Assembly: GCA_973895155.1 (NCBI GenBank)
Contig: OZ316891.1
Span: forward strand, 29,742,331 to 29,806,330
Length of the DNA: 64,000 bases
DNA from: Marsupella aquatica
Lineage: Eukaryota; Plantae; Marchantiophyta
Direction: 5' to 3'
Shown: one piece after another, positions 26,767 to 53,074 of the stretch
Layout of the letters: the number at the start of each line of letters is the position of its first letter
Position numbering within the stretch: position 1 is the stretch's first letter
Made by a program: the position numbers and the translations under genes
Notes under the pieces: model-generated
The model's input: only the letters and a program-made list of their open reading frames with translations
The model's database searches: none
What the model was told of the DNA's origin: nothing

Positions 26767-29700
26767 TTAAGCTTGAATTGCCTTAATCCATGCTTAAATC
26801 TTTTAATCCACGCTTAAATAATAACAATTACTTGACTTGCCTTTATTTGGTCACGTTACATACAACTCTAGTAGACCCTAGTTTTTGTTTTCTACACTCA
26901 CAATACGGGTTACTTGCCTTGGAACAATAGACAAGCCTGGTGATAGTCCATGGTGCCATGTTTGCCCCTCTTAAGCTATTCTTCTGAGTCCAACGCCAAC
27001 ACTTTTTGTATAACTTCAAAATTGAGCTGCCTCAAGAGCCTTGTTCAGCATAATTATGTCTTGCTTTGCCCTGCCCACCAGTCTTGTTCCCAACACATAG
27101 AAGTGCTTCACGTTTTCAAAGTTTAAACAGACTTAGCATACCCCTCAACCATGAGCCAATTGGGGATAGAAGTCTGCATAGCATTTGCCCCTATTCCTTG
27201 AGCCCAGTTTGTATATTCCGCTGATGGCTCTCCAACCCATCCCAATAACATTTTGTCAGAGGAAGGCTCCACCCAAACTTTCTAGTGTCTGGGGCGCACT
27301 CTGGGAAATTTGATGTGAGGGCTGGGCAGGGCTTGGACATGAATACAGGCACAAGGCCCTAATAATTTCAGGCATGTATATTCCACGAATGGCTCTCAAA
27401 CCCATCCCAAGATCATTTCATAGGTGGAAGGGTGCCCCCAAAGTCTCTAGTGCCCAGGATTCTCGTGGGGGGGGGGGGGGGGGGGAGTGGGGACACAAAC
27501 TTGCACATAGGGAGGGCCACAAGGCCCTAAGAATCTCAGCCATCAAACTTTTATGAGGGCAAGAATGGAGGTTTTCATACCACCAACGTTCTCCCGCCTG
27601 ACATTCCCTCAACCCTATCGGGGCAGTTCCAACTCAAAAAATCTCTAGGGCCCTTTTTTTGCTCCCCTTCCCGTTTTCTCCCTACAGTTCTTCACTGTCC
27701 TTTTTTCCCCCCCTTCCCCTTTCTGCCCTGACACTCCTGGGCAGGCCCTCCACCATGCCACGTCCATCTTTCTTGTATCGGGCTCCACGGGCCCCACCCT
27801 ACCGGTCCCCTACCTATGCCCGCGGGTAGGAGCCGGGTGCCCATGCAAAGGGCACAGATATGAATTCCTGCCCGGCCCCGGCCCTGGCCTGCCCCGCTGC
27901 CTTGCCGTCTAGGGCAGGACTCGTCACCATGGCCTTGCCCTGGCCCTTGCCCTTGCCCGATGGCCACAGTTTTTGGCGCCATACGGATTTCGTTAGGGCT
28001 GGACGGACATCGTCATGAAATCTCGCAATCTGAACCGTCAGCTGAGATCATCCGAGGGTCACAACGATTGCATTATATGGGCACCTGTAGAGAACAAATA
28101 CGAAGTAATCATCATCGTCTTGCGAAATGATCCAAAGAGAGAGGGAGATTCGGCACGAAAACAAATTAGGGTGTCTCTTTTTAAAGTTGAATGGACATTA
28201 AATTGGACCAGGCTCTATTCTATTGACCTGACTCAATGTTGGATTAGTTTAGTGTATTTTTTTTAGTACAATATATGTTTGTAATGTGGTTGTGGAGAAG
28301 AAAGGCCTCATTTGGGATGAAGTCAATTGCCAAATCTGACGGCCCTGATTAAATTAGGAAGATCTGATGACTCACATAAACCAAAAAAGTTCAAGTTTTG
28401 GTAACTAAATTTGCCAAAAACTTATCGCACAACAGTGGTAAAGTAGAGGAGAAAAAACTATTTTCAAAATTTCACAATAATTAGTGTTACTTTGGACTCA
28501 AGTTGACTTTCAACTCAGTGTTACACTAATTTGGTAGTAAGGCTAGTTCTTACATAACATCAATTACAATGAACAGTGTGAGTTTTAAAAGAAATACAAC
28601 GAGTCATCAAATTAATTAGGGCCCCTCCGCTGACCACCAATGGGGGCACAAAGAATACACCAGGCTGGGCACCAGGCAGACCCGGTTGCAGGCCCAAGCG
28701 GAGCCATGAGACTGTAGGCAGAGAAATCCCTTCTTCTTTTGAATAGAGTCACCTGTCCAGAGTCTAGGATATAGTCTTGAGTCATATGAAAATATGATAA
28801 TGTCCCTAGAGCCTACATTCAAACTCTCTCTTGGACTTCTTTATATCTTTACTAGCTCAAAACCCATGCCTTCGGCAGGGGGTTTGGAGTTGTCACGTGC
28901 AATCTGAAATAAGTATGATACATCAAAAACCAAAATTAATTAAACTTTTTAAATTTTGAAACTTTCAATAGATAAAAATAAAGATGTATGCAAGTTTTTT
29001 TCAAACAAAATATCAATACAAATCTTTCATAAGTGTTGGATCTTTTGGATTGATTGCATTATGCCTATTTGGTACATTGTAGGGTTTAAATTAAGAAACA
29101 ACCACTACTCCTAAGATAGCAGGCACATGTGCAACATCCAACCAACACACAAGTATCGACAAAGGAGAGGTGTGGTTCACTTCACCTCAGGCTACTTTCA
29201 GGCCAACACACAAGAGAGCTTTTATGGACTCTAGGCCAATCGCCCATACTAAATCTCCATAGACTAAGTCTGCCTATCTGTCCACTCACTAACTAACTCT
29301 TGCTAGTGAATGTAATTAGTAGCACGTCTAAGCTTAACCAAACACCTAACTAGGGTTAGACTAGTTGTGATTACATAGTAACTCTACACCTGAAAGCAAA
29401 TGCCTAACAACTTGTTGGCTTTGGTTGCATCACCTGCTTTAAGTTTTGACTATGCATTGCTTCTAGGTTTTGTGTTTGGGAAAGCATGCATATGGAGCAA
29501 TTGACAAAGGGAGTAAGAGACACAATGGATGGGTTGTTAGAGCACCTCCGAAGGTTTATTAGGGGTAAATGACTTCTAAACGCAAAATGTAGCCCATCAT
29601 TTGGAGGCCTAGAAATTAGAAAAGCCGCCATATTGAATTCATTCACTAGAGTTTCTCCCTCTTCTTTAATTGACCTCTATCCTCTTCAAATTGATGTGTT

Positions 29701-29986
29701 GTTATGCTTAGGTTCAAAATCTCAGCCATACCCAGGATCTCATGACAAGTCGTGGAATCTCTCACGTAGAACCCCAATTTAAGGAATACTGAAGTATTAG
29801 ATTAATTCCAATTTTATCTAAATATTATAAGTTAATGAATGATCAACCTCTTTAACATTTGGTGGGATAGTCAAAAACTTCAAATGTTTTGTTGCAAGAT
29901 CTTTATAACAATGCATCACTAAATGACATCAAGTACCTCTTGATCCATGCACAAATCCTTAATTAAACTGTCATTTATTGTTTCAA

Positions 29987-30517
29987 TTGTCTATTTAATT
30001 ACTATAGGGTTGAATACAAAAAAGATTGACCACCCTTTACAACAATTAATAGGATTGTTGTATATTACAATGTCTACTGGACATTCATTTGAATGTCAAT
30101 AATATCATGCCTTAATATCACCAAACTAAGGCCCCATTGTCTAACTAATATTATATCTTAAATAAACTAACCAACTAACTAACTTGTCTATTTAATTACT
30201 ATAGGGTTGAATACAAAAAAAGATTGACACGCACCAAGGTGCGTGACCTACAATCATAGTATCACCCTTTAATCAGTTAGTTTCTATTGCTTTGACTCAA
30301 TCAGGCATGGAACCATATAAAATCAGAAATCATTGAAAGTTGAGTTCACTTGAAGGTGTAACTATAATTATTATTTATTAATAGGATTGTTGTATATTAC
30401 AATGTCTACTGGACATTCATTTGAATGTCAATAACATCATGCCTTAATATCACCAAACTAAGGCCCCACTAACTAATATTATATCTTAACTAAACTAAAC
30501 TAACCAACTAACTAACT
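29987..30517. repeat. Local direct duplication (first copy internally deleted) near the left end of the element
   Basis: TGTCTATTTAATTACTATAGGGTTGAATACAAAAAAGATTGAC and TTAATAGGATTGTTGTATATTACAATGTCTACTGGACATTC...AAGGCCCCA each occur twice. Confidence 0.85.
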
Positions 30518-30873
30518 TAGACGATAAGACTTGTCTAAACTTGAGTTCTCTGGCTACTACTATTCTGAGTTGCCTTTTAAACTGTATGCTAAACTACATG
30601 CTTCATTACTGTCTAGGATTTGTCACTTGCTATGCATGTCAAGAGCTCGGGGGTTTCACTTCCACAAAAATGGCATATCACGTGCGACGAAGGATAGGAT
30701 CATTTTATTGGTTGTAAGGGAAGACTTAAGAATTTTTGTAGAAGAACAATAGGGTCTTTTAAATTCAATTTTGAGACTTATAAGAACATTATGGCCTTTT
30801 TAATCCAATTTTTGGAATATTCCAAGAATATTCCAACTTTATAGGGGTTAAAAAATAATTTTTTCCTTACATT

Positions 30874-33800
30874 TTAGGGGGTCCAAGGCCTAAAAACGTC
30901 GCAGGTGATGGGGAGGTCCCCATGTAGTGAGACCCCCGAGGTCAAGAGATAGTCTCTTGCCTTGGCAGCAACATTCTTTGGAATTCCTACCAACCCTGTC
31001 ACTGGTCCTTTGCGTGCTTTGAAACACCACAAGGCAGAGGAAACATCTATTGTCTCAGCTTCCTTGTATATTGGAGTTGGATCACGTTCCCATTTCTTAT
31101 CCCAAGAATCTGCCCACCGCTCTCTTGGTTGCCAGTCTGATTGACCACGTTGCTTCTTTGCCATAAATGGTCTAAACCACTCAACGCCACATACATGAGT
31201 AAGAAGGTTTTGTTCATTCACTGGTCCTTCTACCACATCCTAACCCCATATGGACGGGATAAACATCCAGGTCTGAGTCGTTCGACCATACCAACACATA
31301 ACAGCCCTTCACAACATCAACCCTAGGGTTAAAACTCTCAGGAGGTTCATCTTTTGCTGGTCCCACATAATCCACTGTTGCCTACATGCCACATTTCGAT
31401 ATTCTGGTGGAACGTGCTCTCTCCATATTGATAAAGGCCAAAACCCGTATTCCAAGTTGTGTGCACCTTCAGGTTCATATTGCACCTGTTCACCCTGTAG
31501 AGTATCTACAATGTCATTCCAATAATTGATGAGAGTTGTCCAACGTCGCTTTGGTTCTTCCTCTTTTGTTCGCTTTAGAATAAACTCAAAGAATGACACA
31601 TGCTTCTTCAACCCTGTTAGCACTTCAGGAAGCATTTTCAACTCCATCATTGGTAGCCATTTGGGCACCCCAATTGGGATGTGAGGACTTTTGTCATCTT
31701 TCCATGACCACATTTCAATACCTTCCTTGGGTAACCATCCCTGATCAGTTGACTTCATTTTGTATTGGAAGCATGGCATACTATCATGACGAACATAGAA
31801 CCTAAACAGCCTGGGTTTTAAATGCCCCACCAATGCCTCAGGGCCCTTCAACATGAATGGAGCTAAGTAGTTTTTGAAATTTGGGACCTCCTGTAGAAAA
31901 TGTGGGACTGCATTGGGTGTCCTTGCTCTCATGAACAAGGACATTAACTCAGGCAACGAGTATGTGGGGTTATGCATCATAGACTCTGAAAAATGCCCAA
32001 ACATACCGTCAACGTCCTCATGAGTATGCCCAACCACCATAAAACCAAGATGAACCTCTTCAAACACCTCCCTTGCCGTCAACAATGACAAATAAGCCAT
32101 CATATGTTTGTTCTTGTTGTTTGAGGCACAATTATCCAGTTGTAGCTTCAATACTCGTGGAAGGGGCCTGAACTTTGGTGCCTCAGGTGCTGCATCACAA
32201 TGTAACAATCTCATAATGCTTTTAAATAAAACCCTAGTCAGACCCTAAACCCCAATTTAGGGTTTAGGGTTTAAACCCTATTAATGAAACCTTGGCTAGG
32301 AGGAGCAACAACTACACAAAGTAGAGTGTTAGTGTGTGTGAGCTTATATTATTAATAATAAAAGGATTGTGAGTAAAGTACCTAGGCTTGAGATGTAGGC
32401 AATGTCATTCTCAAATGCTCTAAGGACACTTGCCTCCAAGATATCTTTTCTCCCAAAAAGGAGGTCTTTAAAAAGACTTGTCGAGTCTGGCCCCTCCACA
32501 AGAGATTTGATCATTGGATTTGGGTTTTCCAACATCCTTAGTATTGAATCAATTGACCCAATAGTGACGTTGACATCACCTGACCACACTCCAACATGAT
32601 ATTGGGCTATGGCCTTGGGACCATGACCATGAGTAAGGATACCAGTGACAGTAATTGGGAACTTTTGGGCACCATCCACATGCTTAGGATTGAAGGGCAT
32701 TCTTGGGAGAGCTGTCTTTGAATGATCCATCTTATCATGAATAAGGCATAACACTTCCTTTGGACGATGGATGGACTCATATCTCCAGGTATGATAGCAC
32801 ATTCTTTGTTGTGTGTGGTCTTGGTGATGTTCCTCCTCGTCACGCCTTAGGCCCTCTAACTCTTCCTTAGCTCCTGTAAGGTTTGCTTTTCGTTGAAGCA
32901 ACTCACTACAAGTTGTACACTTTGAAAAGTTGTTGCCCTTTTTGTGACGTGAGAACTCCCTGAAATACATCTGATGTAGATGACTCAAGGTGGGTTGGGA
33001 AATTGGAGGAAGACCAGTCTCCTTGTTGACAACATTAACCCTGTTTCTAATATTCTCCCAAGTAAGATTGGTTGGCAATTCCCTCAAAACCACCTTTGAA
33101 TTATCTGCCATGGTTCTCAACTTGGCTGGATGATGATCAGCTACCTCCTCAATAATCTCTTTCATTGACATGAATGCTTGAGATACTTTCTCAGACATAC
33201 GCCTTTTCCAGCATTACCATGGGTACCTATGTTCATTCCAGCCATCACAGTCTTCTTCAAGGCATAAAATTGAGTTTTTCCTCTTGAATGAATGATTCTC
33301 CATGCCTCCACGCACAATACTTTGCCCTCCACTACTAGAATCCTTTCGCCCGTACCCAAGTGTATTGTATTTTTTATAGCCTTGATTTCCTCCTCCTTGC
33401 GCTCCGCAAAAGATTTTGACCACCACTTTTGCCTAATTGCCATAGCCAAGTTGCGGTCCAAATATTGGCAACAATGTTCACTACAACAGTCCTTGGTGTT
33501 TATCAACAACACATCTTGACGTGCCAAAGATGTGTCTCTTCTAGATGTCTAGGAAGATGGACTCTTTCTTTTTCTAGTTTTATGGACGTAGGACCGCTTT
33601 CCACTTGTAGGAGATGTGTTCCCTCCCACTTCTTGCCTAATGTTGTGGAAAGACAACAAGTTGCCATCCTTGGCAATGAGTTGGTCCATCGACCAAGCTT
33701 TTAAGCAATCTCTATGCTTCAGATGGTCAACCGTAGCTCCCTCAACAAAATCGTTGATCAGAATTCCCACATGTGTATTCCCAAGGGTGACATCCCCAAG

Positions 33801-34268
33801 CTTGACTATAGGATCTAGAACATGTATAGTTGCCACTGCAAAAATCAACTTATTCTCATCCACCACCTTTACAGGCATGCCCATCCACAAGGCCTTTGGT
33901 AAAACTATTTCCACACGAGACCGACTCTCATTATGGCGGTTCCCAACAGAATTTTGCTCAACTGGATCTTGATCATCACCAACCTCGCCAAACAAATCCT
34001 CCGATTCCATGGGAGCTTGAAAAAGTTGATTCCTTTCCCATACAAGGTAGCCCCCAATCATGTCCTTCAAAAGTTTGTCATCTCTGCATTGAATAGTCTC
34101 GTCAAAAACTTCCTCCAATAGAAGAAGAACTTTGTCCGCCCCAAGAGTAACATTGTGACAAACCCTGGAAGGATCAAGACTTATCACACGACCTTTTTCA
34201 ACCTGTTTGTCACGGATGCCTATAATAAATTTTCTGCCTTCCCTGATCTAGACTGTCGATGTCACCAT
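30874..34268 (-). pseudogene. Sola-like DDD transposase gene with two N-terminal Tnp1/En-Spm-like beta-barrel repeats; disrupted
   Basis: ORFs 34187-33549, 33527-33162, 33198-32344, 32214-31309 and 31236-30874 join into one gene with an ATG at 34268. Motifs: CCSEHCC, LCVEAWRIIH, HGNAG, FSKCTTC, acidic triad candidates in IHDKMD / LQLDNC..NNKN / VGHTHEDVDGMF. In-frame TAG stops at ~34250 and 33549, plus frameshifts. Confidence 0.8.
32228..32282. repeat. Telomere-like (TTTAGGG/CCCTAAA) tract in a transposase intron
   Basis: AAACCCTAG..ACCCTAAACCCCAA-TTTAGGGTTTAGGGTTT-AAACCCTA, with units in both orientations. Confidence 0.75.
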
Positions 34269-35665
34269 ACTAATTATGATCCTGCACAATAGCGAATATG
34301 ACTATAAGCGTGCTGTCCTGTCACGGCCGTCAACTACCAAAGTAAGGACAAAGTACTGCACGCGACCTGTCGCGTGATGCTTCTTGAGGACTTAGTAGCC
34401 GTATGAACCAATCCATTACGCGACCAGTCGCGTCATGCTTCTTTTGTAACATTCTATTGTGGAACGAGCCCTATACCCGTGCGTTGCAGGGCACAAGGAG
34501 GGCCGGCCCATAAGGAGTCGGGCCAGGGCATTTATGGAGCGGAGGGCGAGAGGAAGGAGCGAGTGCATCGGGACCGAGGGGAGGGCGACGCATCGCTCAA
34601 AAATGTATATCTCGAGGGGGGGTCCATAATGAAGGCACGGGAGTGGGAGGCCCTTGCCAAAGACACGAGGGGGACCCTCAATGACACGACTGACCTCTTC
34701 ACAAGCATTATTAGGGCGTCTCAGATATGGGGAAAAATCTGACCTTATGGGCAGCCCGCAAAGCTGTCGGGCAGACCGAAACTAGGTATACTCGGGCCAA
34801 TATTTGCTGGGGTAGTTAGCAATGAGTTGTGTCGCGGCGCTATGCGTGAAGTGGTTTTCCTACTGGGGGACTCAAATATCGGGCCGAGAGAGTTTTGCAG
34901 TTGCCCGAGTTAGGTTCGGGTGGACACGGCCTGAAAATGTACGGGAGACCCTTAGGCTAGCCCATGACCGATTCAACATTATAGATTCCTATTTCCCATA
35001 GGGTCTAAAACCTAGAAGCTAGAAGCCTAGGCCCAAACTCTAGCTCGTAGTTGGCGATTCATAAGTAAGATACGATTGCGATTTAATAATAAGATACACC
35101 ACTGAGTGGGCAGTACCACTGAGTGGACACTGGACAGTCAGTATCTATTGAGGACCCCATAATCATTCCAGTACATCACTAACAATCAGTACGTTCCGAG
35201 CCAGTCGCCGACAGTGAAATTAAAGCCATAATTATACGACAATTCAGCTTGCAGCCAATTCTATTCCACGCCAGTCTAACGATTACTCTCTTCGAGAAAC
35301 CACCCTAGATTCCGCCCTACATTTGTGCCATTTAATTGACACACGGTTATTCTGTTGTAGAACCGTCCTACATGCCGCGCTACATCCGTGCCACTGAATT
35401 GATAGACGATTACTCTCTTCTAGAAACCAACCTAGATTCCGCCCTACATTCATGCCACTTAATTGACAATATCCACAGTAGTGAAGAGTAAAGACTATAA
35501 AGCATTGAGATGATGTCTAAACTGCCCATTCCCCATGCATTGAACATTCTGGTTACTGGATAATGTAATCGCACATCAGCTCTCCCTTCCTTTGCTCCCA
35601 ATAGAAGAGTCTTTCCTCTCACTCCAAATTCTTAGTCTCGGTCCGCATCTCTTGCTTGAAGGGCG

Positions 35666-36169
35666 ATGGCTAAGCCAGTGAGCTTGAAGAATGTGGATGT
35701 TCCAACAGACAATGTAGAAGATTCTATCTATCGTGGTACTCCTTTCAGATTGTGTAAGCGATGTGATATCATGTTTGCGGTGACTACATCCAGAGGTCAA
35801 ATGTTTTGTGAGAGAACCCACTGTTCGCCACATTTGACGACGGAAGATAAGATGGAGAGCAATCCAACCGTGTCGAATCCAAAGATGGAATCCGGGGAAA
35901 AGTTGAAGGCCAAAGTATGCATCGATTCTATTACGGTCAAGGCAGCAGCTGATGATAAGAAAGTCAAGAAGGAGGCCAAGAACGTGGACGCAACTACAAA
36001 AAGGAAATTAGAGATGAAGGAATATTGTGAACTATATTACAGAAGGAGGAAGCCGAGCAACGCACGCAAATTTATGGACCATAGAGCTTGGGCAAAGGAG
36101 GCATTCTTGGATTCTGGCGAATCCATGCCAGACACGGATGAGTGGATGCCATCTTCGTGGAATGATTGA
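35666..36169 (+). CDS. Small basic protein with a treble-clef-like Zn finger (element cargo)
   Basis: Intact 167-aa ATG ORF containing CKRCDIMF...FCERTHC (CxxC...CxxxC) and a K/R-rich C-terminal half. Confidence 0.55.
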   Translation: MAKPVSLKNVDVPTDNVEDSIYRGTPFRLCKRCDIMFAVTTSRGQMFCERTHCSPHLTTEDKMESNPTVSNPKMESGEKLKAKVCIDSITVKAAADDKKVKKEAKNVDATTKRKLEMKEYCELYYRRRKPSNARKFMDHRAWAKEAFLDSGESMPDTDEWMPSSWND

Positions 36170-37849: not shown

Positions 37850-37960
37850 GTTGCAGCTCGTTCATTGTAGTCAGGAGCTCAATCGTTCATTCATTGTGGT
37901 CCGGAGCTCGATCATTCATTGTGGTCAGGAGCTCTTGTTCGTTGTGGTCCGGAGGTGGTT
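37850..37960 (+). repeat. Short tandem repeat (~25-bp unit) in non-coding part of the element
   Basis: TTC(A/G)TTGT(A/G)GTC(A/C)GGAG x4, followed by CAGCTC-rich sequence to ~38215. Confidence 0.7.
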
Positions 37961-39821: not shown

Positions 39822-39899
39822 CATACACGACCGGGCGCGTGAGACAACTTCTAACAATGTTTTGTGATTTGATAACAATAGGATGAGCAAACTCCTCAA

Positions 39900-41013: not shown

Positions 41014-44000
41014 TTTGGGGCGACACGACCATGCGTGTGCTTCAATTTTTCAGTCGCATAGTTATTTATAGATATGGATTTTGACGAGTTGACCTCAAGG
41101 AAAGAAACCATTCGGTTTGATTAGTTCCTAAAATGTATTTCGACGCGACGCGACCATGCGCGTATTGTCATTCTGAAATAAAGGTTTCACTTTCAATATT
41201 TGTATTTTTCAGAATGGATCCAATGGTGACATCAAAGCGGAAAAGAGACTCCTCTAAATCGGTTGCTCAAAAGAAAGCCAAGACCAGAGTGATGCCCACG
41301 CTTATCAAGGAAAATCTATCAGGGAGAGAACAACGGAGACAAAGACACTCCATCTCTTTGACTCGACAGAGATAACCGAACTTGGAATAATTGTTCAGAA
41401 TGGGAGTCTCCGCCTTGTGGTTGCAAAAAATGAGAAGGCTACAATTTTGGAGAATTCAAAAATTCTTGGGTGCTTCTTTGAGAAGAACTTGAGTGTTCAA
41501 GAGTGTATTGAGGGATTGGTTCTGTTAGTCAGCGACGATAACCAAGATGACAACATCAGCATATGTTTGGATCGCACGCAATATGTGACCTTCAATCAGA
41601 GGAGAATCGATGATCTTCTAGGTGCTAGGCACACCTTGGAAAAGGTTACTAGTGTGGGATACCCCTCCAATCCATGGGGATTAACTGGTGATTTGATTTG
41701 TCAATATATTATTGACGTTCTTGAGTTCAAGAGAATTTCTTTCAAGAAGGAATTTCGCTTGGGAAAGCCCATTCCAGTGACCGAGGCTGAAATATACACG
41801 GCAGAGAATCTTCCAAAAGTTATCACAGCACAGAATGTCGGTGCTCTGTTCGATAGTTTCCTCAAGGAATATAGTGGTGTGAACATATTTAACAGCAAGT
41901 CCTTTTTTATTGAGACTTCGCGTTGTCATCTTGCACCGGATCACATCAAATGCCGAGAGTGGAATCAGGATTACATTGAGAGGCTGAAGAATTCATTCCT
42001 TTCTCATTTGGCTATAAAGTTTGAGAAGAGATGCTGCTTCTTAGTCCCTGTAAAGTGGGTTCAGTCCGAAGCCGACGAAATTGTCGACTACAATGGAACG
42101 GCCTATGAATCGACACCAACGGAGGAGGACATTAAGAGAAGTCATTTTTGGATACTTGGAGGCCAACACACAATAATGGCCTACAAATTGCTGAAAGACG
42201 ACGCTAATGTCAGCCAAGATGTTCGAGATGCATGCGGGATAGTAGAAGCTGTCATGTTTTGGGCAACGCTCAATAACAAGAATAATATCCATTTGATGGG
42301 ACTGTCGAGGGCCCTAAACCACTATCATCAAACATACATGGAAGAGGGGCAATTTCTCACCATCGTCAGACAGTGTCGTAATATATGGAACTCATTTGGT
42401 CGGCCTGGATCACATTCTCGTCATCCTAATTGGAAGGTATGGACCAAACCCTTGTCGATTATATTCTTACAGATTTATGCATTACATTGTCTTACAGATA
42501 TATGCATTACATTTTCTTACAGATTTATGAAGTTAATTTTGTCACGCGACTGGGCGCGTCAATCTTAGAATTGTTATGCTCCTTTGTTATCTCATTTTCC
42601 AGGTATTTATGAGGGCTACAAGTTTAGTCTGCCCATGGGTGCAAATGGGCAAAAACGAGGTAATGAAATTTGGAGAGTTGGCTCCGTTCCTCTTTACCAT
42701 GGAGGACGAAACATTCAAGAAGTGGATGGAAGTTTATGAACTTTCAAGGAAAGGAGAGCTTGTTATATACAATGGAATTTTGCAGAAGAAGATCCTCAAG
42801 GTTGCGAAGAATCCAAATGCTTTTTATCTTCTTAAGAAGTCATTCCGTTCTTGTCAAGGGTGCTCGGACAAAGTTCTTCGAAAGGCAACGGAATACATGT
42901 TGAGTGGGAAATTGTCTATTCCCAAAAACAGAAGCATCAAAGTGAAATCCGCGAAGGCTAGGAAGTCCTCTCAAGCCCTAGTGGTGTCAACAAGCGGCAT
43001 GAGTTTGGAGGAATTTTGTGTAGAGAAGAAGACAAAAGTTGAGTTTGAGATTCTTTTGTTGAGTAAACTCAACGGGGATACAGGCACCCGGGCTGAGCTG
43101 AAAAGTCTTACCGACGCTGCCCAGAAATTGCGGGTCCAAGAAATGATTGATCGCTTTAAGCTCAACAAGATGGTACTGAAGCAGTTGAGAGATGCGCTGA
43201 GTGGTTATCTGAAGAAGTGCTTAAATATAAATATTATTAATGATAATTTGTTGAAAGAGATCGACCCGATATTCTACAGGTTGGTGGAAGGAATACAAAA
43301 ATCAGTTGATAGTCAAGGAAACCAACTAGTGCGGCCAGTCGGTGAGAGGCTGAAATTGCGATCCCTGCAGGATATACAAAATGTTGGGTTTGTAGACTGT
43401 ATCATACGTGAAGACAAGAACCTTGCAAGCTTGATTTATTTTGATTCCTCATCAATGGGAGAGATGCGTCCGTCAAATTGCGCATTCTATGAGGGGTTAT
43501 TCCGTGCTACTAGCAAAATAGGGGCTAAACCACACCATGTGGTTATTATTGTGGCCACTCTCATTGAGTCTTATTCAATCAAACGGGAATTAGTGAAATA
43601 CACACAGTACATTGCTGTGGATAGCAATTATATTCAGAAGCGGCAAAAGGAAAGGAAGCTTATTGTAACATACGCCTTTCACAGCTCGGCCTTCAGCACA
43701 ATGGGCGACTCGGATGTCCTTGAGCTCCAATTGCTGTCCAAATATCGGATTGAGAAAATAACTGATTTTGAAGAGAGCGGCGAGATATCGACGACTTCGC
43801 CAGAAAAGATGCCTCCATTCTTTGAAAATATTGTTAGTCAATTCGTCCAATCTGGGGAATGGGCTATATGCTTCGGCGAAGGAAAGAATTTGATCCAGTG
43901 CCTAATGGTAAGTTCTTAGATTTACATTGTGGGGTTTAGCTTTTCAGATGATTTGGATTTCGAACTATCAATTTATATTGGTCGAACTAATTTTTGTTTC

Positions 44001-45264
44001 TTATTTTACAGGATGCTGGATCCAATGTAAAATATTACTGCCCTGTAACAACGCACGGGGAATTGTCTTGTTTCCTACAACACACGACTACGACGAATGA
44101 TACAACGCTATCGTTGATTGACCCAGTCCGGGCTAGTATAGAAAAATGTATAGATAAACTAATGAAGTACCGTCCATCCGTATCTGCTCTCAAGGCTGAT
44201 GTTTTGGAAGTCCTCCAAGAACAACATATTCCTGATCATATTTGTTATCAATTGTTGCAAGAGTATTTCCTCTCGGAAGGTTCAGATAGAATGTACATTT
44301 GGCCAACAGAGTACCCTCGTGGGCCAATCCAAGGTAAATTTCTATCAAACCCTAAACAATTGCTTCTTCTGCATAACAAAACATTGTCAAGCTTCACGCG
44401 AACATGCGCGTGAACATTGTTTTTACTGTGTATTATATTTATTTATATATTTTATTTTTGTCAGATGAAGTCCAAAGTGGCTTTACTGGTGAGGACAAAG
44501 TGAACGACGGGCATGGGGACATCAATGACGACCAAGATCCGGATTGGATGACCGAGCCGCAGAACAATGTCGATGATGATGACCAAATCGAAAAAGAGAG
44601 TGATGGTGAGGAAGCCGATGAAATTGATGAAAATCAGCAAGTTGATAAATTTGACGAGGGGACTGACGAGGATACAGCAGGGTCCGACGAAGACATGGAG
44701 GATGTGGATGATGAGGCCAGACAGGAGGAGGCGGCCCGGCTAGAAGCGGTGAGACAAGAGGAGGCCCGAGAAGAAGCGCTTAGACTAGAAGCGTCCCGAC
44801 AAGAGACTCAAAAGGTAGAAGCCAAGAAGCAGAAGGCGACAGCTTGAAAGGCAGCTTCCGCAAAGAGGAAGTCAAGAGCTGAAGCGGAGAGAGTTGAGAC
44901 AGCCAGACTTCAGGCAGAGGCATTGGCAGAGGTAGCGAGAGTCCAGGCCGCGGTTGAAGCAGAGAGAGAAGTGGCCAACAGGGTGGATGAGGATAGGAGG
45001 CAGGGCCAGACAAGAGAGGAGGCCGAGAGCGAGGAGGAGGAACCGACAAGACAGGAGGCCGAGAGCGGGGAGAAGGATCCGACAATACAGGAGGCTGAGA
45101 GCGGGGAGGAGGAACCGACAAGACAGGAGGTCAAGAGCGAGGAGGAGGAACCCACAAGAAAGGAGGCCAAGAGCAAGGAGGAGGAGAGAGAAGAGTCGCA
45201 GAATATGAAGGCAGAGAGGGAGGAGGCGGAGAGGGCGGAAGCGAAGAGGGCGCAGGCAAGGATG

Positions 45265-45775
45265 GAGGCCAAAAAGAAGGAGGCCGAAAAGAAGGAGGTC
45301 GAAAAGAAAGAGGCCGAAAAAAAGAAGGCGGCCGAGAAGAAGAAGGTGGCCGAGAAGAAGAAGAAGGCCGAGAAGAAGAAGGCGGCCGAAAAGAAAAAGG
45401 AGGCTGAGAAGACGAAGGAGAAGACGAAGGAGGCTGAGAAGAAGGAGGCCGAGAAGGAGGCCGAGAAGAAGGAGCAGGCCGAGAAGAAGGAGGCTGAGAA
45501 GAAAGAGCAGGTTGAGAAGAAGGAGGCCGAGAAGAAGGAGCAGGCCGAGAAGAAGGAGGCTGAGAAGAAAGAGCAGGCTGAGAAGAAAGAGGCTGAGAAG
45601 AAGGAGGCTGAGAAGGCTGAGAAGAAGGAGGCAGAGAAGAAAGAGGCTGAGAAGGCAGAGAAGAGGGTTGAGAAGAAAGAGGTTGAGAAGAAGGAAGCCG
45701 AGAAGAAGGAGGAGCAGGCGGAGAAGGAGGAACAGGCGGAGAAGGAGGAGGCAAAGAAGGAGGCCGAGAAGGCCA
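45265..45775 (+). repeat. Coding low-complexity repeat (AEKKE)n
   Basis: GAGAAGAAGGAGGC(C/T) reiterated, giving an EKKEAEKKEQ single-alpha-helix or coiled-coil-like tract. Confidence 0.9.
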
Positions 45776-46632
45776 GGGACCTTTCGCTTCAGGCAAACCG
45801 ATTACCTAAAATAAAGCTCAATTTGAGGAAGCCTTCGTCGCTGTCCGCTGGGATTAAGAAGAAAATATTAGACTATTTTCTGCGTCCAGACTTTGAGTTT
45901 GACGATCCACCATTAGGTACAGTCTCCTTGGAGGATTGGAATAAATATTCACTCGAGCTGCTACGTGTCCAGGCAGTTTTGGATGTGCATTACTGGAAGG
46001 GTGTTCTGATTACAGAGGAGACGAGTGCAAGTGAATCGAGACTAGAGATGATTACCAATAATGTACGATTTTTTGAGAATCGAGTGGAAGAACTGTGAAC
46101 GGAGTTGGCTCCCAAATTCGCTCAAACTGTGAAGAGACTAAAGTCTGACTTCACGCGACCGGGTTCGTGGTCTTGGCCACGATATAACCCACAGACGACA
46201 CACTCGGAAGCCCAACTGGAGACTGGCGAAGCAGATATTGTGGAACTTGATTTGTCAGACTCACAGATGGTCGAATACCTAAATAAACTACCACAACCAT
46301 TCGAAGGTCTTCCCGCCTCATCTCTCCAACCTTCACAAACCGGTCTGGTGGATCGACCACTGCGCTCCCGGGGAGCTCCTAGTGATATAGCTGCGAAGGA
46401 GGCACCCAAGAAATCCGGTGCAAAAAGGCCGGATCCACCCAATCCAAAGGTCATTCGCAAGCTATAAGTTGAAAGGATTTTGTTTCTAGTCTAGCAGCCA
46501 GTATTTTCTTTGTCGTTAGGGTTTGGACCTGTCATTATATTTTATTATTGATTTATTGTTGTTTCTGTTTACTCGTAGGCTACAACCTTAGTACGTTATT
46601 TGAAGGCGTATTGAATTCTCTGTTTTTTGCAG

Positions 46633-47424
46633 TTTTTTGAAAATTTGGGTAGTCGAATAGATCAATGCCTCGATCCTTCTAGGGATATGGAAGAGGTATT
46701 GACCAAGTTTTTACACCACTCGATCAAGAGGAAACATATGATGTGTCTGAGACCGCGCGAGTTGCTTACCGATGATATAATTAATGCTTATTTGAGCTTT
46801 CTCGAGCTGATTCTCAATAGAGTTGGAAAATCAGAGGTTGTAAAATTCTTCCAAACACACCATTTCAAGCTTCTCTCCATGGATCCTACCGTTTTCGATG
46901 AGGACCGAGCATCTTGGACAGTTGACTTTCCGTTAAGAATCACTGAATACGACAAACTAGTCTTTCCAGTTCACATTGCTGGGAAAGAACATTGGTCATT
47001 GGCAGTTGTCTATCCGAAGGAGAAACGATTCGAGTACCTGGATTCTCTAGTTCAAAATCGACAAAATCCTAAGGTGCTCGATGTCGTTGGGCAGTATTAC
47101 GTCGACAAAATTCTATGGAGAAATGGAGTCAAGGTGGATATATCAGGTTGGGAACGGATATATCGGAACGATATTCCACACCAAAGTGATGGGTACAGTT
47201 GTGGTGTTTTTATGTTGAAATACGCCAAGTGTTTGTGCCAAGGCAGCGAAATTAGTTTCTCTGCTGCAGACATTGCAAAATTCTGTAGGGAAGTTGTCTT
47301 GTCGTTATATGACATGGACTTCCAAAAGCCGGCGTCCGGAGACAACCATGGTACCGGGATACGTGCTGCTATGATTGACATTGCCGGCAGAATTCAATTG
47401 TTGAACGACCATCTTCTTGGGCAG
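46633..47424 (+). CDS. Ulp1/C48 SUMO-protease domain exon
   Basis: LTDDIINAYL, FFQTHHF, VFPVHI..EHWSL, YLDS and Q.DGYSCGVF. The His-Asp-Cys triad and oxyanion Gln are intact. Confidence 0.9.
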
Positions 47425-48720
47425 GTATTATACTTCATTTCAGTCTCTCTTTATAGTCATGCGACCGTTCGCATTATAAAATTTATTTTTCATTTTCTAA
47501 TGTTTTACAGAAACCTAGCCCGAAACCCCCTGATCAAGTAAAGAAGGCACCAGTAAAGAAGGCACCAGTAAGGAAAGGCACCAATCCTGAAGTCCGCTGA
47601 TTTCCCGGAGGCGGGAAAGACCTTGGTAGTACGGGCTCCAAATCCTTCAGCACAGAAATCACAGGTACAGACGACGCCTAATCCATCGGCGCAAAGGCCA
47701 CCGGTACAGAAAGGTCCGGTAATTCGAATGAAGAGACTTGTAATTTTTGACCTGAATCGGGTACTTATCTGGTCAGAGCAAAGCAGCCCTGGGATGCCCA
47801 TTCGGTCAAGGGGTGTCAAACACATGCACAAGGTTTTGTATCCAAGGCCTGACTTAATGACATTTCTTGTGAAGGTGTCAGAACTTTACGACATTGCCAT
47901 CTGGTCGTATATGTTGAAACTAAATATTCTATCATGTGTAAGGTTGATTCTCCAACCCGAGGTTTTGAGCCGTATTAAATTTATCTGGGGACAAGAATCA
48001 ACATGACCTATTGGTAAGAGTAATAATGACATTCCCCTATTTGTCAAATGTCCCGACATTGCCACCGATATTAAGAATTACGACAAGGAGAATGTGATTA
48101 TTATGGATGACGCTGCTTATAAGACGAGCTTAAATAGCTTCTACTCGTCTATGTATCCCGACGCATATTTTGGGCTGGAAGATGACACACATTTTCAAAA
48201 AAAACTATATCCGAATCTGTGCGATATGTTCAATCCAAAGTTGAAATTCCATGAGCGACTTCGGGGATATGGTATTCCAGAGTTTTCTCGAGACAATCTT
48301 CAGAAGGATTATATTGATAAGGCGAATCTTTGGAGGAAAAATGTGACCATTCGTACTAAGGGTAATCCTGACCATTTACAAGAGTTTGATGATTTCATGA
48401 GAATATTATCAAATAGGAAAGATCGTGAAATGGAAGCCAAAGAAAAGTAAACATTTATTTATTTATAATTCTTATTTATACTTTTGACTTTGTGTTGTGA
48501 GTGACGCGCCCGGTCGTGTCGCTGTGTGGATTTATTTATATTGTTATGTGAGTATTGTGTTGGGTGGCGTGGTTGAATTGATTGCATAATATGAGAATTG
48601 AACTATGGATACATTAGTCACGCGACCGTGCGCGTGTAAACATTTGTCGTTTACTTATATTTTTAAAATTTGTGTGTTATGTTTAGGCGTTAATATGAGA
48701 ATCGAATTGTTGATTTACAG

Positions 48721-49428
48721 GAGACTAAGTGGAGCAGATCGCGTCAACTTCTAGTTTTAGGAGTGGAAAACTTTCTATGCTATATTAAGAAATATACTCC
48801 TGAGCTCAAGTGGACTACAAAAATTCGTATCGGATCTCTATGTGTCGTTCCGAGGCCATATCTTCATGATTTTCTAAAATTATGTTATGATAATTTTGAT
48901 GTGATGGTTTGGTCTACCCTCGAGGATAAACTGGTTTATCAGATACTTTCAGAAATGTCGTCGATCATGGACCTGTCGCAGCTGAGATATGTTTTCACCT
49001 AGGATCATTGCTGGCATCTTGGTTATGTGAAGAAATGTTATAAGAGAGTTGTCTTCAAATCTATGGACAGACTACGTGATATGTTTCAAGATTATCGACC
49101 AGAGAATATAATCCAGATTGATGCCTGTCCATCCCATACATGCCAGACAGGTGTATGTGGATTGTTGTTTACAAAGACGTTTCAAGGATCCTTGGATGAT
49201 GTCTTTTTGAGGGATACTCTCATTCCACATTTACTGAAGCTATCAGATTCCGGGCTTTGTCTTGCATTCGCTAACAAGTTGGATTATCCCATCTGGTCGA
49301 TTAGAAATCTACATCTAGATTGGACTTTGAACGAGGATATATGGGAGCATCTGTACATGCAGAGACATGCTGATCAAGTTCTTATGAAGTACTTCAACAT
49401 ACGTCACTTATCAAAGGCCAGAGTGTAG
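48721..49428 (+). pseudogene. FCP1/NIF-like HAD domain copy 2 (exon starting at a splice acceptor; in-frame TAG at 49000)
   Basis: tttacag|GAG; QLLVLGVENFL..PRPYLHDFL..FDVMVWS..FKSMD..NIIQID..DDVFL. Confidence 0.7.
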
Positions 49429-49521
49429 AGGATATGTTATTTGTCTGTAAATCCATGACGCGACTATTCGCGTGGCAACATCCACACGGGCTCATTTATC
49501 TTGTATTGTGTTTCTCTATAG

Positions 49522-50211
49522 GAGATACATTGTAGCAGAGAAACTCAGCTCGTAGTTTTAGATGTGGAGCATCTACTCTGTTACACTGCACCGCATTCCC
49601 GACTGATGACGGTCTCAACTGGAATTCGTATTGGGAATGTATACGTTTTTCCAAGGCCTTATCTTCACGAATTTGTGAGATTCTATTTTGAGAATTTTGA
49701 CGTAGGGATCTGGTCATCTCTTAAGAAGAACCTTTTAGATCAGATTTTAGCATCTATTTTTATTGCGATGGAAATGGCCTCATTTAAGTATATTTGGGAT
49801 GAGTCTCATTGTTACTTATGCGATGGGGCGACCTCAAATAAACGGATATTTTTGAAGTGTTTTGATAAAGTGGAAAGTTATACGAAGGCGTATCTGCAGA
49901 AAAATATAATGCTTATCGAATCCGATGCATTTCATGCTTGTTTAGATCCTGTTTTTGGATCATTATTTCCGCCCAAATATTTTGGGTTGGTCGACGACTG
50001 TTTCCTGATTAACGTGTTGATTTTGTATCTTAGCAAGCTCGCGAAATCTTCTGAGCCGCTTCTCGTTGCCAATGGAAGAGGTTATCCTGATTGGTCAGTT
50101 AAATCTCTTTTTAGAGATTATGATTATAATCATACTATATGGGAAGACCCTTTGATTCAGAGGCATGGAGATAGATATCTAGTAGAGCAGTTTAACAGAC
50201 GCCCAGTTTAG
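49522..50211 (+). CDS. FCP1/NIF-like HAD domain copy 3 (exon starting at a splice acceptor)
   Basis: ctatag|GAG; QLVVLDVEHLL..PRPYLHEFV..FDVGIWSS..YIWDESHC..FLK..NIMLIE. Confidence 0.75.
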   Translation, partial: EIHCSRETQLVVLDVEHLLCYTAPHSRLMTVSTGIRIGNVYVFPRPYLHEFVRFYFENFDVGIWSSLKKNLLDQILASIFIAMEMASFKYIWDESHCYLCDGATSNKRIFLKCFDKVESYTKAYLQKNIMLIESDAFHACLDPVFGSLFPPKYFGLVDDCFLINVLILYLSKLAKSSEPLLVANGRGYPDWSVKSLFRDYDYNHTIWEDPLIQRHGDRYLVEQFNRRPV

Positions 50212-53074
50212 GACGCTTCCGAAATAATATTCGGCAGGAGAAACTCCCCATTGGTATTGTCGTGCTAGAAACTATTTGTAATCTCCCTAAACGGGTTATC
50301 ATATATAAAGGATCTCAAAGATTTATTTCTCTATTTTTATTATTCGTTGTCTGTTGGTCCCGTCAAGTTGGATTGCGTCAAATCTTAGTGTTGTTAAAAT
50401 GTGATGTTGCAATCATTTTCAGGGTATCACACGCAGTGACGCGTCATGTTGCCCCCTTTTCTTGTCATTTTTAAGCGTGGTAATCGAAAGCATTAACAAG
50501 CAATTGCTGTCATATTAAAATAATAATATTTAGGTATTTTTGAAATTTCCAAAGTTTGGTTTTCCTTAAATTGGGGTTGTAGGTGGGAATAGAGGTCAGG
50601 ATAGAGGAGTCTATCCTGGCTGCCATTTCTATAAAATATTACTTAGGTTCTAGTGTTGTGAAAATGGAGGCTAGCTACCATTTATTTAGGGATAGGGCCG
50701 AGTCCACCGCTGGGACACTATCCCTCCAAATTTACGTTAGCCCCTATTTTCTCTTTTTAGTTGTTATAGGCTCACTTGACCCTACCATCGGAGATGCTCT
50801 CAGTCTGTACCTCCATTGGCATCTCCTAATGTGGATGCCAATGGACAACAATATTAGAGAGATTAGACAACAAGCTCGACCACAAACCTCCGTTTGCTTC
50901 TCCTAATCTGATGCCCACTCACCACAAAAAACACAGGATTGGAGATGAAGTTGACAAAGGAGATTGATAATCAAATGGGTTGAATCCCCTGGTTGGAATG
51001 CATCAGGGTTGTCTGTCTACTGAAGTGGCTAAATCCTAACCCTTGATTATCTAATAAGCTATTTTGTTATAATTATTAGATTCTGTAATTGGAGAGGGCA
51101 AATTAAGACCCAGGTTCAATTTAGGTTTTCACTTTGTATAATTGTTATCATAAGTTGTTTAGTTCATTGCTTCCACAAAGGTGAGTGTTCAAGGAAAGAT
51201 TCTACTTAAATAAAAAATAACATCTCAGAATTTACACTTTGTGTGGTTTAGGTCTCTCCAAACTGAAGCTCCACCCAATAAAAGATTGGTGTATCAACTA
51301 ACACCTGAAATGCATTGGCATACAAGGGACATAAAGCAATAAGCTATGCCACAAGTAGAGTGTAAACAAAGGTAAATTGCATTTTGAACATTGTAGCTTA
51401 GATCCAATAGCTCAATCTAAACACTAGAATATGCAATCCTACTACATATAGAATGCCAATCTGGCAGGAAGTATTCTTCACGAAACTTGGATTATGGTGG
51501 TGTTTTCTGCCAACCATGAGATGAACTTGCCACTATGCACCTTTTCCATGCCCAACTTGTCACTTTTTTCTGCAACTCACATACTCTGAATTGCAATCTA
51601 GTTGTCAGGTTGTCTTGCCATTTCTTTGCAGTGTCCAAAGGTTTAGCCATCTCATCTATGCTTTGACAACACTTGTGCAGTGCATGTACATGGAGCTAGT
51701 GTCACATCTAACACTATAATAGGCAATCCCGCCCATTTGGTCACTTTCGTCCGTCGTCCCATTATGAATTTGAATATCAGCGGGAATGAAACTGAACCGT
51801 CAGATTAAAGCATCTCTTTTTTTGTATCCATCCGATCGTGAAATGAGACATGCATCAGATTTTGCTCCCTTATGTGCACCCCCGTGCACTCATTATGCCC
51901 CTCCATCCTCACCCGCAGCAAGGACCTCTGCATAGGGCTTCGCGACCCACATTTACATTCCATGCACTTTCTCCCTATGGGACCGGCCCTCCTTGCACAG
52001 TGCAACGCACTGGCATAGGGCTCGTGTCACAATAAAACCTGAAATGCCCGGCCAATATAATGGAAGATACAATATGAAGAATATGATTCATCAAATCCTA
52101 GTAGCATTATACCACTTAACCTGATTCTCAAGTTCTACGTGGTCCTTAAGTTCAACAATTGAATTGGAATGAACAGAAAATTGGCCTGCCAATGCTCCAA
52201 GTGAGTAGAGTGGTCATTTTCATTTCTCTGTGACTTTAATTTTTGCGATCAAAGCTATAGTGTCACCTCAATGGTAATTCAAGGAAACAAGATTGTGCTT
52301 GAACAAGGGTCCCATCTCCAGACCGGCCCAGTTGGTTGGGGTTCCAGAATTTCCGGTAAGAAATGCAGCAGCCAAGCTGGTAAGAGTGTGGAAGATTAAT
52401 GTGCGCCAATGTTGTGAAGGAAGTTATATTGTTTGGGTGGAATTGGTCAAGTTGGGACTGGAGGAGAGGGGCCATTTTCCCAAAGATGCTGGAATAGAGG
52501 CCTTCAGATCACAAGTAAGCAGTGTCAAATTGAAATACACAAAGGATTGGGAGCGATTGCTGATAAATTATTATTGCAGGGAGGGGATTCTGAAGAGTTG
52601 GGTGGTCACTACGGCTTCGAGATTTTGAGGAAATGTGATTGATCTTGGAGGATATCACAATGACAGGGCTTCGTCAGGTTTAATAGAATCTTTTGAAGGT
52701 GTGAGCAAAAGTCCTAAGCCAATGCCAGTTAGTGAAAGATGGGGAGACATAGAGGAGGCAGCCATTGCTACGAAGGGGCGGCAAGGGACTGATCACTAAA
52801 AATGTTAGCCCTTCTTCCGGCTGCATTTTTGGTTTTCTAAGGTAGTGAACGAGTAAACATCCGCATGTCAGATCTTGCACCTAAAAGTGTGAGAAAACTG
52901 GCTTCGTCAGTAAGCTCCAAGTACCTGCTTGCACAGACCTTAGCAGTGGCGTATTTCTAGATTTTGGGAACTCTCGAAAGCTATCAGTGTGAATGCTATT
53001 TGAGGATTGGGAGTAAATTTTGTTGAATGTATGAAGGACACAAAGGCCAAAGTAGAAGCTGTCATTAAGGCGAC

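Follow-up and report, generated by a model that had tools for sequence, protein, structure and literature searches.

The Element and Its Transposase

A 64-kb stretch of the liverwort Marsupella aquatica (contig OZ316891.1; called the window below, with all positions counted from its first letter) holds a large Sola1-like transposon of 20,809 bp at 29,770–50,578. A DDD-type transposase gene occupies its minus strand, and the plus strand carries a long cargo arm in which a predicted accessory gene joining a ParB-like domain to a Ulp1 protease is interleaved with 20 copies of one palindrome. The arm has also retained CpG dinucleotides that the transposase gene has lost, and here we consider whether the element may bind its own palindromes to escape silencing.

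The span proposed for this element in a first-pass annotation of the window (29,500–50,840) contains two nested inverted-repeat pairs. In the inner pair, the first 15 bases, AACCCCAATTTAAGG, match perfectly at 29,770 and 50,578, and similarity continues at lower identity to about 75 bp, so that the left terminal inverted repeat (TIR) lies at 29,770–29,845 on the plus strand and the right TIR at 50,503–50,578 on the minus strand. Alignment of these TIRs over 70 bp scored 77 against 25 ± 8 in 500 simulations, and over bases 70–300 no further similarity was found (60 vs 63). The termini read AACCC and GGGTT, with an exact 4-bp direct repeat, GTAG, on each side as the target-site duplication (TSD; plus strand, 29,766–29,769 and 50,579–50,582). 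End pairs that matched at 10 or more of 12 bases were compared across the two end regions, and only the inner one was accompanied by an exact direct repeat of at least 3 bp. Because the exact 4-bp TSD and Sola1-type termini coincide at the inner repeat, the element was delimited there, its ends and TSD being read from one copy, within the window. The outer repeat was also tried as the terminus (score 147 vs 81 ± 12) and was ruled out by the same TSD and termini. The proposed element is therefore real and has the TIRs and TSD sought for it, but its ends required correction, and the enclosing outer repeats, once counted as part of it, fall outside the target duplication.

The transposase gene is spliced and lies at 30,949–34,268 on the minus strand, head-to-head with the plus-strand cargo arm as the first-pass annotation described. 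Its product shows the motifs DKMD, DNC, and HEDVD and matches Pfam DUF7869 (E 3e-36), which we take to be a marker of Sola1. Homologue searches with the transposase returned no labelled Sola reference and no longer relatives at E ≤ 1e-30. In the window copy the gene contains two in-frame TAG codons, shifts frame near 33,203, and lacks 8 nt near 31,240. A very-high-copy miniature inverted-repeat transposable element (MITE) of 295 bp is nested at the 3′ end of the gene (30,646–30,940), flanked by the 8-bp TSD GTCAAGAG. With a DDD-type transposase, a 4-bp TSD, which has been described as a hallmark of Sola (PMC10741241), and TIRs whose termini are like those of a curated Sola1 element, this is likely a large Sola1-type cut-and-paste transposon that exists in multiple copies.

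Two side observations concern the transposase gene itself. Its N-terminal part (33,549–34,247, minus strand) seems to contain two tandem β-rich repeats, which resemble a Tnp1/En/Spm-like domain but had no Pfam match. In addition, the transposase intron contains, at 32,234–32,280, telomere-like CCCTAAA/TTTAGGG repeats together with a copy of the TIR core, AACCCCAATTTA.

The Accessory Gene and Smaller Cargo Genes

The largest cargo gene is predicted to encode a protein of about 2,200 aa. All five predicted introns have canonical GT–AG junctions and keep the frame, and the junction between exons 1 and 2 is spliced in an annotated Calypogeia homologue, P0047. Exon 1 (predicted, 41,214–42,436, plus strand, as are all cargo exons) encodes a basic N-terminus, a weak PH-like domain, and a ParB/Srx-fold domain with the motif GGQHT. 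An AlphaFold2 (AF2) model of exon 1, with a predicted local distance difference test score (pLDDT) of 82.5, placed the PH-like domain in the front half (Z ~5, weak) and the ParB/Srx fold in the back half. The ten best Foldseek rows with this exon were all ParB, PadC, or Noc (E 2e-3 to 1.6e-2, none reaching E 0.001), and comparison by VIA gave PadC at Z 8.7 (root-mean-square deviation 3.1 over 99 residues) and KorB at Z 8.3 (2.8 over 93). The ParB-like domain claimed from the sequence was thus recovered as a fold by structure comparison. Atlas matches of exon 1 to DUF3723 and ParB_N clusters at 0.92–0.93 fall below the threshold for recognition and serve as a lead only. Searches with exon 1 gave 34 relatives at E ≤ 0.001, in 34 clusters; among the 20 clusters looked up, those named to species came from the liverwort Calypogeia fissa (two) and the lycophyte Diphasiastrum (one), and the liverwort homologues are 36–41% identical.

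Exon 2 (predicted, 42,603–43,907) encodes a helical region followed by an α/β region at the position where an algal element, discussed below, has a methyltransferase. A methyltransferase fold, which in the β class is a permuted Rossmann fold, had been claimed for this gene and was not confirmed. The AF2 model of exon 2 reached a pLDDT of only 32, and Pfam, PHROG, PDB sequence searches, and the atlas were blank or under 0.9. A profile built from 10 methylases matched without significance at E 0.46, other runs gave E 0.24–0.26 at other registers, and the hmm scores were equalled by 15–54 of 500 shuffles. Neither DPPY/NPPY nor FxGxG, the catalytic and S-adenosylmethionine-binding motifs of β-class N4C/N6A DNA methyltransferases (PF01555), is present in exon 2 of the window or in P0001. 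The region is probably an inactive relic. A single full-length relative of the exon was found, at 52% identity, and the search gave none shorter.

Exons 3 and 4 (predicted, 44,012–46,449) encode a short globular stretch and a long, acidic, Glu/Lys-rich repetitive linker, with two TGA stops in the window copy. They are followed by the predicted exon 5 (46,633–47,424), a Ulp1/SENP protease with matches to Peptidase_C48 (E 4e-23) and SENP1 (E 2.5e-17). The His-Asp-Cys triad and the oxyanion Gln are all intact, so the Ulp1 module of the first-pass annotation stands. Beyond it lie three FCP1/NIF-like exons: terminal exon A (47,511–48,450, motif DLNRV), exon B (48,721–49,428, GVENF), and exon C (49,522–50,211, DVEHL). 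Each starts at a phase-0 acceptor that fits the donor of the Ulp1 exon, and the three are candidate alternative last exons. NIF domains scored above the Pfam cut-off in all three (E 5e-6, 2e-6, and 2e-13), the nearest solved chain to exon C was UBLCP1 (E 0.006), and the three paralogues are 21–38% identical to one another. The FCP1-like part of the proposed fusion and its two further exons were therefore found as NIF domains. Their function as carboxy-terminal domain (CTD) phosphatases is doubtful because DxDx(T/V), the catalytic motif of FCP1/SCP phosphatases, is absent from each of them. In addition, the ParB–Ulp1 fusion is not universal in the family, since P0028, a distant homologue whose long open frame of 2,264 aa includes the ParB-like domain, has no Pfam match for Ulp1 or NIF. 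Searches for the genomic context of homologues returned no loci from viral contigs (29 pattern matches) or metagenomes (39 and 14), and none in plasmids.

The smaller cargo genes lie between the transposase and the accessory gene. An open reading frame (ORF) of 167 aa at 35,666–36,169 has a CxxC-x14-CxxxxC pattern that looks zinc-ribbon-like by eye only; the Zn-finger protein proposed here keeps this cysteine pattern but gained no family match in Pfam or PHROG. Three F-box-like genes follow at 39,301–39,821 (with a frame break near 39,560, where high-depth contigs carry extra letters), 39,883–40,448 (with an ATG directly behind an AG acceptor, a frameshift near 39,995, and stops), and 40,573–41,013 (an open frame). 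These three ORFs are homologous to each other (tblastn E 4e-8 and 2e-5). A Pfam F-box match was seen in the third and falls below the cut-off (PF00646, E 0.002); the other two are called F-box-like from their similarity to it. A C/T-rich, leader-like stretch with GT donors was also seen at 37,690–38,230, as were ATGs right behind AG acceptors at 39,881 and 41,212. This arrangement suggests that one promoter might feed several cargo ORFs through alternative splicing.

The Palindrome Array and the CpG Footprint

Twenty copies of the palindrome (T)SACGCG-N6-CGCGTS(A) are spread over 34,360–49,473, in agreement with the roughly 20 copies first reported as interleaved with the arm. They lie at 34,360, 34,418, 36,536, 36,775, 36,910, 37,042, 37,818, 39,097, 39,163, 39,193, 39,266, 39,825, 41,148, 42,544, 44,396, 46,153, 47,459, 48,504, 48,620, and 49,458; weaker copies occur at 41,023, 50,429, and 50,439 and a variant at 30,229. 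A search for ACGCGAC-NN-GTCGCGT with up to three mismatches found 20 sites in the element and none elsewhere in the 64 kb, and each of 10 simulated sequences with the same dinucleotide make-up contained 0–1. The conserved core is ACGCG-N6-CGCGT, with the half-site T-S-ACGCG. Coding sequence makes up 63% of the arm, yet 19 of the 20 palindromes fall outside it (p 1e-7). Two palindromes lie a short way upstream of the transposase start, probably within a leader intron. The half-sites show no co-variation of their outer bases (8 of 21 copies paired vs 8.3 expected), which favors a dimeric DNA site over an RNA stem. The RNA-hairpin reading was set aside on this ground and because Rfam gave no match to the palindrome. 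Three copies show paired changes, which are consistent with CpG decay; one of these (41,025) is private to the window copy.

The site-bearing part of the element also differs in composition from the rest. With the palindromes and the MITE masked, the observed/expected (o/e) ratio of CpG is 0.80 in the CpG-retaining zone (34,100–50,578) and 0.29 on the transposase side (29,770–34,100; Fisher p 3e-28). In 500-bp bins, the ratio ranges from 0.15 to 0.44 throughout 29,001–34,000 and from 0.58 to 1.39 throughout 34,001–50,500, with the best change point at 34,100–34,400. Codon junctions, which are only weakly constrained by the protein sequence, show the same step: the ratio of NNC|G to NNT|G is 84:191 in the cargo and 12:98 in the transposase (p 4e-5), while control junctions give 276:440 and 143:185. 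From the first site toward the transposase, CpG o/e falls over about 1 kb through 0.71, 0.54, 0.41, and 0.24. Within the array the nearest site is never farther than 1.1 kb away, and o/e by distance class is flat at 0.69, 0.81, 0.87, 0.72, and 0.75. CHG is depleted as well (o/e 1.02 in the arm vs 0.62 on the transposase side), which indicates that the loss is of the transposon type and not of the CG-only gene-body type. The arm would have had time to lose its CpG if methylated, since the divergence of the NIF paralogues and of the liverwort homologues given above marks it as old. Read most simply, this footprint reflects a line of active copies in which methylation covered the transposase body but spared the zone that carries the sites, along with the transposase promoter inside that zone.

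Copy Number and Decay

Contigs of four public runs (two organism labels) were compared with 29,000–48,900 of the window, all 30 bins of which they cover. Contig depth gives no exact copy number, and run X1 may be the source sample. In X1, the contig identical to the left flank of the element has a depth of 9. In the same run, three contigs over the transposase reach 698–729 and differ from the window at 5 of 507, 8 of 531, and 17 of 581 positions (~97–99% alike), and the better-supported arm rows stand at a depth of ~430–570. Relative to the flank, the transposase is thus ~80 times and the arm ~50–60 times as deep, or half that if the flank is heterozygous, and each is apparently present at tens of copies. 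The cargo is multicopy rather than single-copy because its contigs are so much deeper than the locus-specific flank contig; single-copy cargo, syntenic in related species that lack the transposase, had been named in advance as an outcome that would speak against a cargo-bearing element. For the other such outcome, transposase copies that never carry the arm, the contigs give an indirect answer, as none of those listed spans both. At least two arm types exist. A minor set of arm contigs (depth 45–48) is 97–98% like the window, and one major arm contig (depth 434) has 69 letter differences and 30 gaps in ~600 positions (~88% alike). X1 depth is lowest in the non-coding spacer at 36,304–38,959 (76–160 vs 330–800 in adjacent arm bins), possibly because divergence between arm subfamilies is greatest there.

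The window copy is a decayed pseudogene, transposase and cargo alike. High-depth contigs hold the letters missing at the breaks near 31,240, 33,203, 39,560, and 39,995, so these four frame breaks are private to this copy, and the five in-frame stops checked are all TAG or TGA. The 40 listed of 2,459 rows include 28 C>T/G>A changes private to the window copy, of which 21 fall in CG or CHG against a background of 31% (p 2e-6). This concentration indicates that the host methylates CG and CHG sites as plants do and that the window copy has been silenced.

The nested MITE can be followed in the same contigs. A contig of run X3 bridges it, joining 30,637 to 30,941, and its borders collect 46–77 loose contig ends per run (X1, X3, and X4). 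A second copy of this MITE starts at ~63,866 in the window.

A Proposed Mechanism and Its Alternatives

We propose self-targeted anti-silencing, in which the ParB–Ulp1 protein would act on the element's own palindromes to keep the transposase promoter and the arm unmethylated, and we give this reading a probability of about one half. The ParB-containing protein would read the palindrome, loading as a dimer, and would spread or loop for about 1 kb from each site. The tethered Ulp1 could then strip SUMO from silencing factors at the sites, and the FCP1-like tails may have lost catalysis and serve as binding modules that alternative splicing exchanges. The F-box-like proteins might serve as ubiquitin-ligase adaptors or decoys. 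The transposase body, outside the array, would stay methylated, and copies that lose the system, the window copy included, would decay by CG/CHG deamination everywhere. An anti-silencing role had already been suggested by the first-pass annotation; the CpG step and the non-coding placement of the sites lend it indirect support, but its CTD-phosphatase component is doubtful and the methyltransferase fold was not confirmed. More tentatively, giant Sola1 elements of non-seed plants may have built, independently, a second sequence-specific anti-silencing system that couples a ParB/parS-like tether to a SUMO protease and interchangeable FCP1-like tails, with the CpG step as an evolutionary record of its ~1-kb reach.

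Several observations count against self-targeted anti-silencing. CpG o/e inside the arm shows no rise toward the sites and no local peak, and the CpG analysis describes one decayed copy. No contig among those listed spans transposase and arm in another copy, and an arm only ~88% like the window beside a transposase ~97–99% like it permits a chimeric history that could give the CpG step with no active protection. The protein raises questions as well. By structure comparison, the ParB/Srx fold alone also occurs in sulfiredoxin, SerK, and SbnI; its motif is GGQHT in most homologues whereas that of ParB is GxxR; and behind the fold, where the poorly modeled exon 2 lies, neither a helix-turn-helix (HTH) nor another domain that could read a site was identified. 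The reader of the sites could instead be the Zn-ribbon ORF, the transposase, or a host factor. In its original form, the proposal also included a CTD-phosphatase-like module, and none of the three FCP1-like domains, as read from a decayed copy, has the DxDx(T/V) motif.

These weaknesses leave room for other explanations. ParB and the palindromes might serve the mechanics of transposition, the protein loading along the 21 kb and compacting it to bring the ends together, or holding the excised DNA. The CpG step would then date from a recombination that joined a transposase module methylated for a long time to an arm of less methylated descent. A ParB/KorB fold, sites spread across the whole arm, and a CpG level that is flat across it would all suit such a role, as would a transposase that is near-invariant among high-depth contigs next to an arm up to ~12% different, a pattern expected of module swapping. 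We nevertheless regard it as rather unlikely: the sites keep out of the transposase third and do not cluster at the ends, the CpG step is a gradient from the first site with no sharp junction, and the fused, intact Ulp1 is left unexplained. It is also unlikely that the palindromes are host-factor or RNA-processing sites of a multi-exon unit, in which host transcription would keep the arm unmethylated and the cargo would act on host proteins. A palindrome does stand 36–85 nt upstream of seven of the nine proposed plus-strand splice acceptors, but the short introns and spacers put any non-coding site near an acceptor and may explain this. Other points in its favor are that several cargo ORFs start immediately after an AG acceptor, that in imperfect palindromes it is mostly the left half on the sense strand that stays intact, and that host genes in the window have similar codon-junction CpG (0.78–0.97). 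The half-sites do not co-vary, however, none of these sites occurs elsewhere in 64 kb of host DNA, and ParB genes adjoin inverted-repeat arrays in unrelated algal elements too.

An active exon 2 would lead to a different form of self-recognition, in which an N4-cytosine or N6-adenine methyltransferase marks the element and the mark blocks 5-methylcytosine, as proposed for Sola1-1_Ec32. Exon 2 sits in the same position behind ParB as the methyltransferase of that Ectocarpus protein (PMC12477816), and the best profile register falls on the KP..LL..II..S..GD.VL motif of β-class methylases. The profile E values and shuffle results given above, the missing DPPY/NPPY and FxGxG motifs in the window and P0001, and the lack of support from Pfam, PHROG, PDB, and the atlas make this improbable. 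Least probable of all, and by our estimate very much so, is that the cargo is passively captured host DNA with no role for the element. F-box, Ulp1, and FCP1-like domains are common in hosts and the window copy is full of stops, but high-depth contigs lack four of its frame breaks, conservation of the ParB gene family extends over 34 clusters that include a liverwort and a lycophyte, and the palindromes are not placed at random.

The Neighborhood of the Element

The outer repeats that flank the element are inverted copies of each other (score 84 vs 51 ± 10, reached by 0 of 500). The left arm (29,540–29,765, plus strand) has a GAGCA end and a TTA flank, and the right arm (50,583–50,799, plus strand) a TGCTC end and a TCA flank. 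They are probably the two halves of an older foldback MITE of ~450 bp, split in its center by the insertion. A PIF/Harbinger identity was considered for these ends and rejected, as the flanks TTA and TCA, one base apart, do not form the 3-bp TNA duplication of that superfamily and the Pfam scan hit no Harbinger domain. Just beyond the right half lies a small perfect hairpin (50,811–50,842) with 11-bp arms, GGCATC..GATGCC, which is possibly a MITE remnant.

Farther out, part of the element's promoter region (34,452–34,517) recurs in inverted orientation at 51,971–52,037, with 84% identity and 1.4 kb beyond the right end. An array with a period of ~400 bp, based on GAGTGAAACCTCTAGAC, occurs at 10,378–12,700, 60,076–60,139, and 63,587–63,682. 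The start of this array is 76% like 34,999–35,071 of the element and is perhaps a relic of a related one. The flanking genes include a DEAD-box helicase (22,734–24,059, minus strand), a plant DUF247 gene (56,480–57,799, plus strand), and two further long ORFs with no family assignment (247–2,647, plus strand). Taken with the liverwort and lycophyte homologue clusters, the DUF247 gene suggests that the host is a non-seed land plant.

Relation to Known Systems

In its ParB/Srx fold and its 16-bp palindromic candidate sites, the system resembles bacterial ParB/parS, Noc, and KorB, the length of parS being 16 bp. True ParB has an HTH domain that reads the site and forms a CTP-dependent clamp; the liverwort system differs from ParB/parS in that it has no ParA partner and no identified HTH and carries the motif GGQHT.

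The closest parallel by described features is Sola1-1_Ec32 of the brown alga Ectocarpus, a Sola-1 element of 21,549 bp with a 4-bp TSD, AACCG..CGGTT ends, and a 282-bp imperfect TIR (PMC12477816). On the strand opposite its transposase, Sola1-1_Ec32 has an accessory gene for a protein of 1,104 aa that combines ParB with a predicted N4C/N6A methyltransferase and was proposed to bind and modify its own element, and its best blastp match is the transposase of the moss element Sola1-1_PPa (PMC12477816). The liverwort element is similar in length (20,809 vs 21,549 bp), TSD length, termini (AACCC vs AACCG), and the opposite-strand ParB gene. It is distinct in its predicted accessory protein of ~2,200 aa, in which the methyltransferase region is degenerate or unrecognizable and Ulp1 and FCP1-like tails are added, in its F-box-like and Zn-ribbon genes, and in its shorter TIR (~75 vs 282 bp). 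Its ends are also unlike those of Sola2-1_Ec32, whose terminus is GGCGG (PMC12477816). Neither “palindrom” nor “Ulp1” occurs in the main text on Sola1-1_Ec32 (PMC12477816).

A second algal parallel is the Bostrychia Plavaka with PAG1-3, described as elements of 17–19 kb that pair a ParB accessory gene with inverted-repeat arrays and for which self-binding has been proposed (bioRxiv 10.1101/2025.02.11.637652). Those elements belong to EnSpm/Plavaka, their ParB is fused to a 2-oxoglutarate oxygenase with methylase and SET on a separate gene, and their arrays are tandem, whereas the sites described here are dispersed through introns. In the text of that preprint, neither Ulp1 nor SUMO appears (bioRxiv 10.1101/2025.02.11.637652). 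Among non-seed plants, a Sola1 with a DDD transposase and a 4-bp TSD has been described in Physcomitrium patens, and some Sola elements are said to exceed 15 kb (PMC9033089, PMC10741241). Eukaryotic methylases derived from phage ParB–terminase loci have been listed, with none for land-plant transposons in the passages covered (PMC4738411), and PMC6431247 does not mention Sola.

The first-pass annotation knew of no description of this combination of parts. That view survives for the land-plant ParB–Ulp1 fusion, which was not found in the literature searched, but giant Sola1 elements with a ParB accessory gene and inverted-repeat arrays beside ParB were published for brown and red algae in 2025. 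More broadly, no plant Sola with a ParB–Ulp1 fusion, an arm of F-box and FCP1-like genes, or a CpG footprint appeared in the literature covered, a scope that leaves aside the Sola paper of 2009, the Repbase moss entry, and the Bostrychia supplements, all of which may bear on the point. The element is accordingly less novel than first thought, and what appears to be new, judged from sequence, is the ParB–Ulp1 fusion in a land plant and the CpG footprint. Together they provide a land-plant test case with a defined 16–20-bp site, a candidate reader, a Ulp1 effector, and a footprint that fits long-term protection. If self-targeted anti-silencing is correct, ParB–Ulp1 and VANC–Ulp1 would be a case of convergent evolution, the case would point to SUMO removal as a general route to undo the silencing of plant transposons, and a compact tool of site plus protein could keep transgenes unmethylated. 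The CpG-step test can be applied directly to the algal elements.

A precedent for the proposed logic comes from VANDAL, which the Bostrychia preprint names as the only proven case (bioRxiv 10.1101/2025.02.11.637652). Within its own element, VANC binds motifs in introns and between genes and brings about a local loss of CG methylation (PMC5735166), and KIU is described as a VANC–Ulp1 fusion (PMC13317346). Ulp1 was recruited independently by VANDAL/KIU. The liverwort element shares with VANDAL VANC and KIU/Kaonashi an element-encoded protein, joined to Ulp1 in KIU, and motifs in introns or intergenic DNA (PMC5735166, PMC13317346, PMC10398659). For VANC, local CG hypomethylation around the motifs has been proven experimentally, whereas the liverwort system is a proposal with an indirect CpG footprint. 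VANC and KIU also belong to the Mutator superfamily of eudicots and use non-palindromic motifs of 8–9 nt (YAGTATTAY and AGTTGTMC), and no VANC-related or Mutator-transposase Pfam match was found among the ORFs scanned. The system may therefore work like VANC but is not a VANC. Given the ParB elements of Ectocarpus and Bostrychia and the VANC and KIU precedents, its chassis is known from algae and its logic from eudicots.

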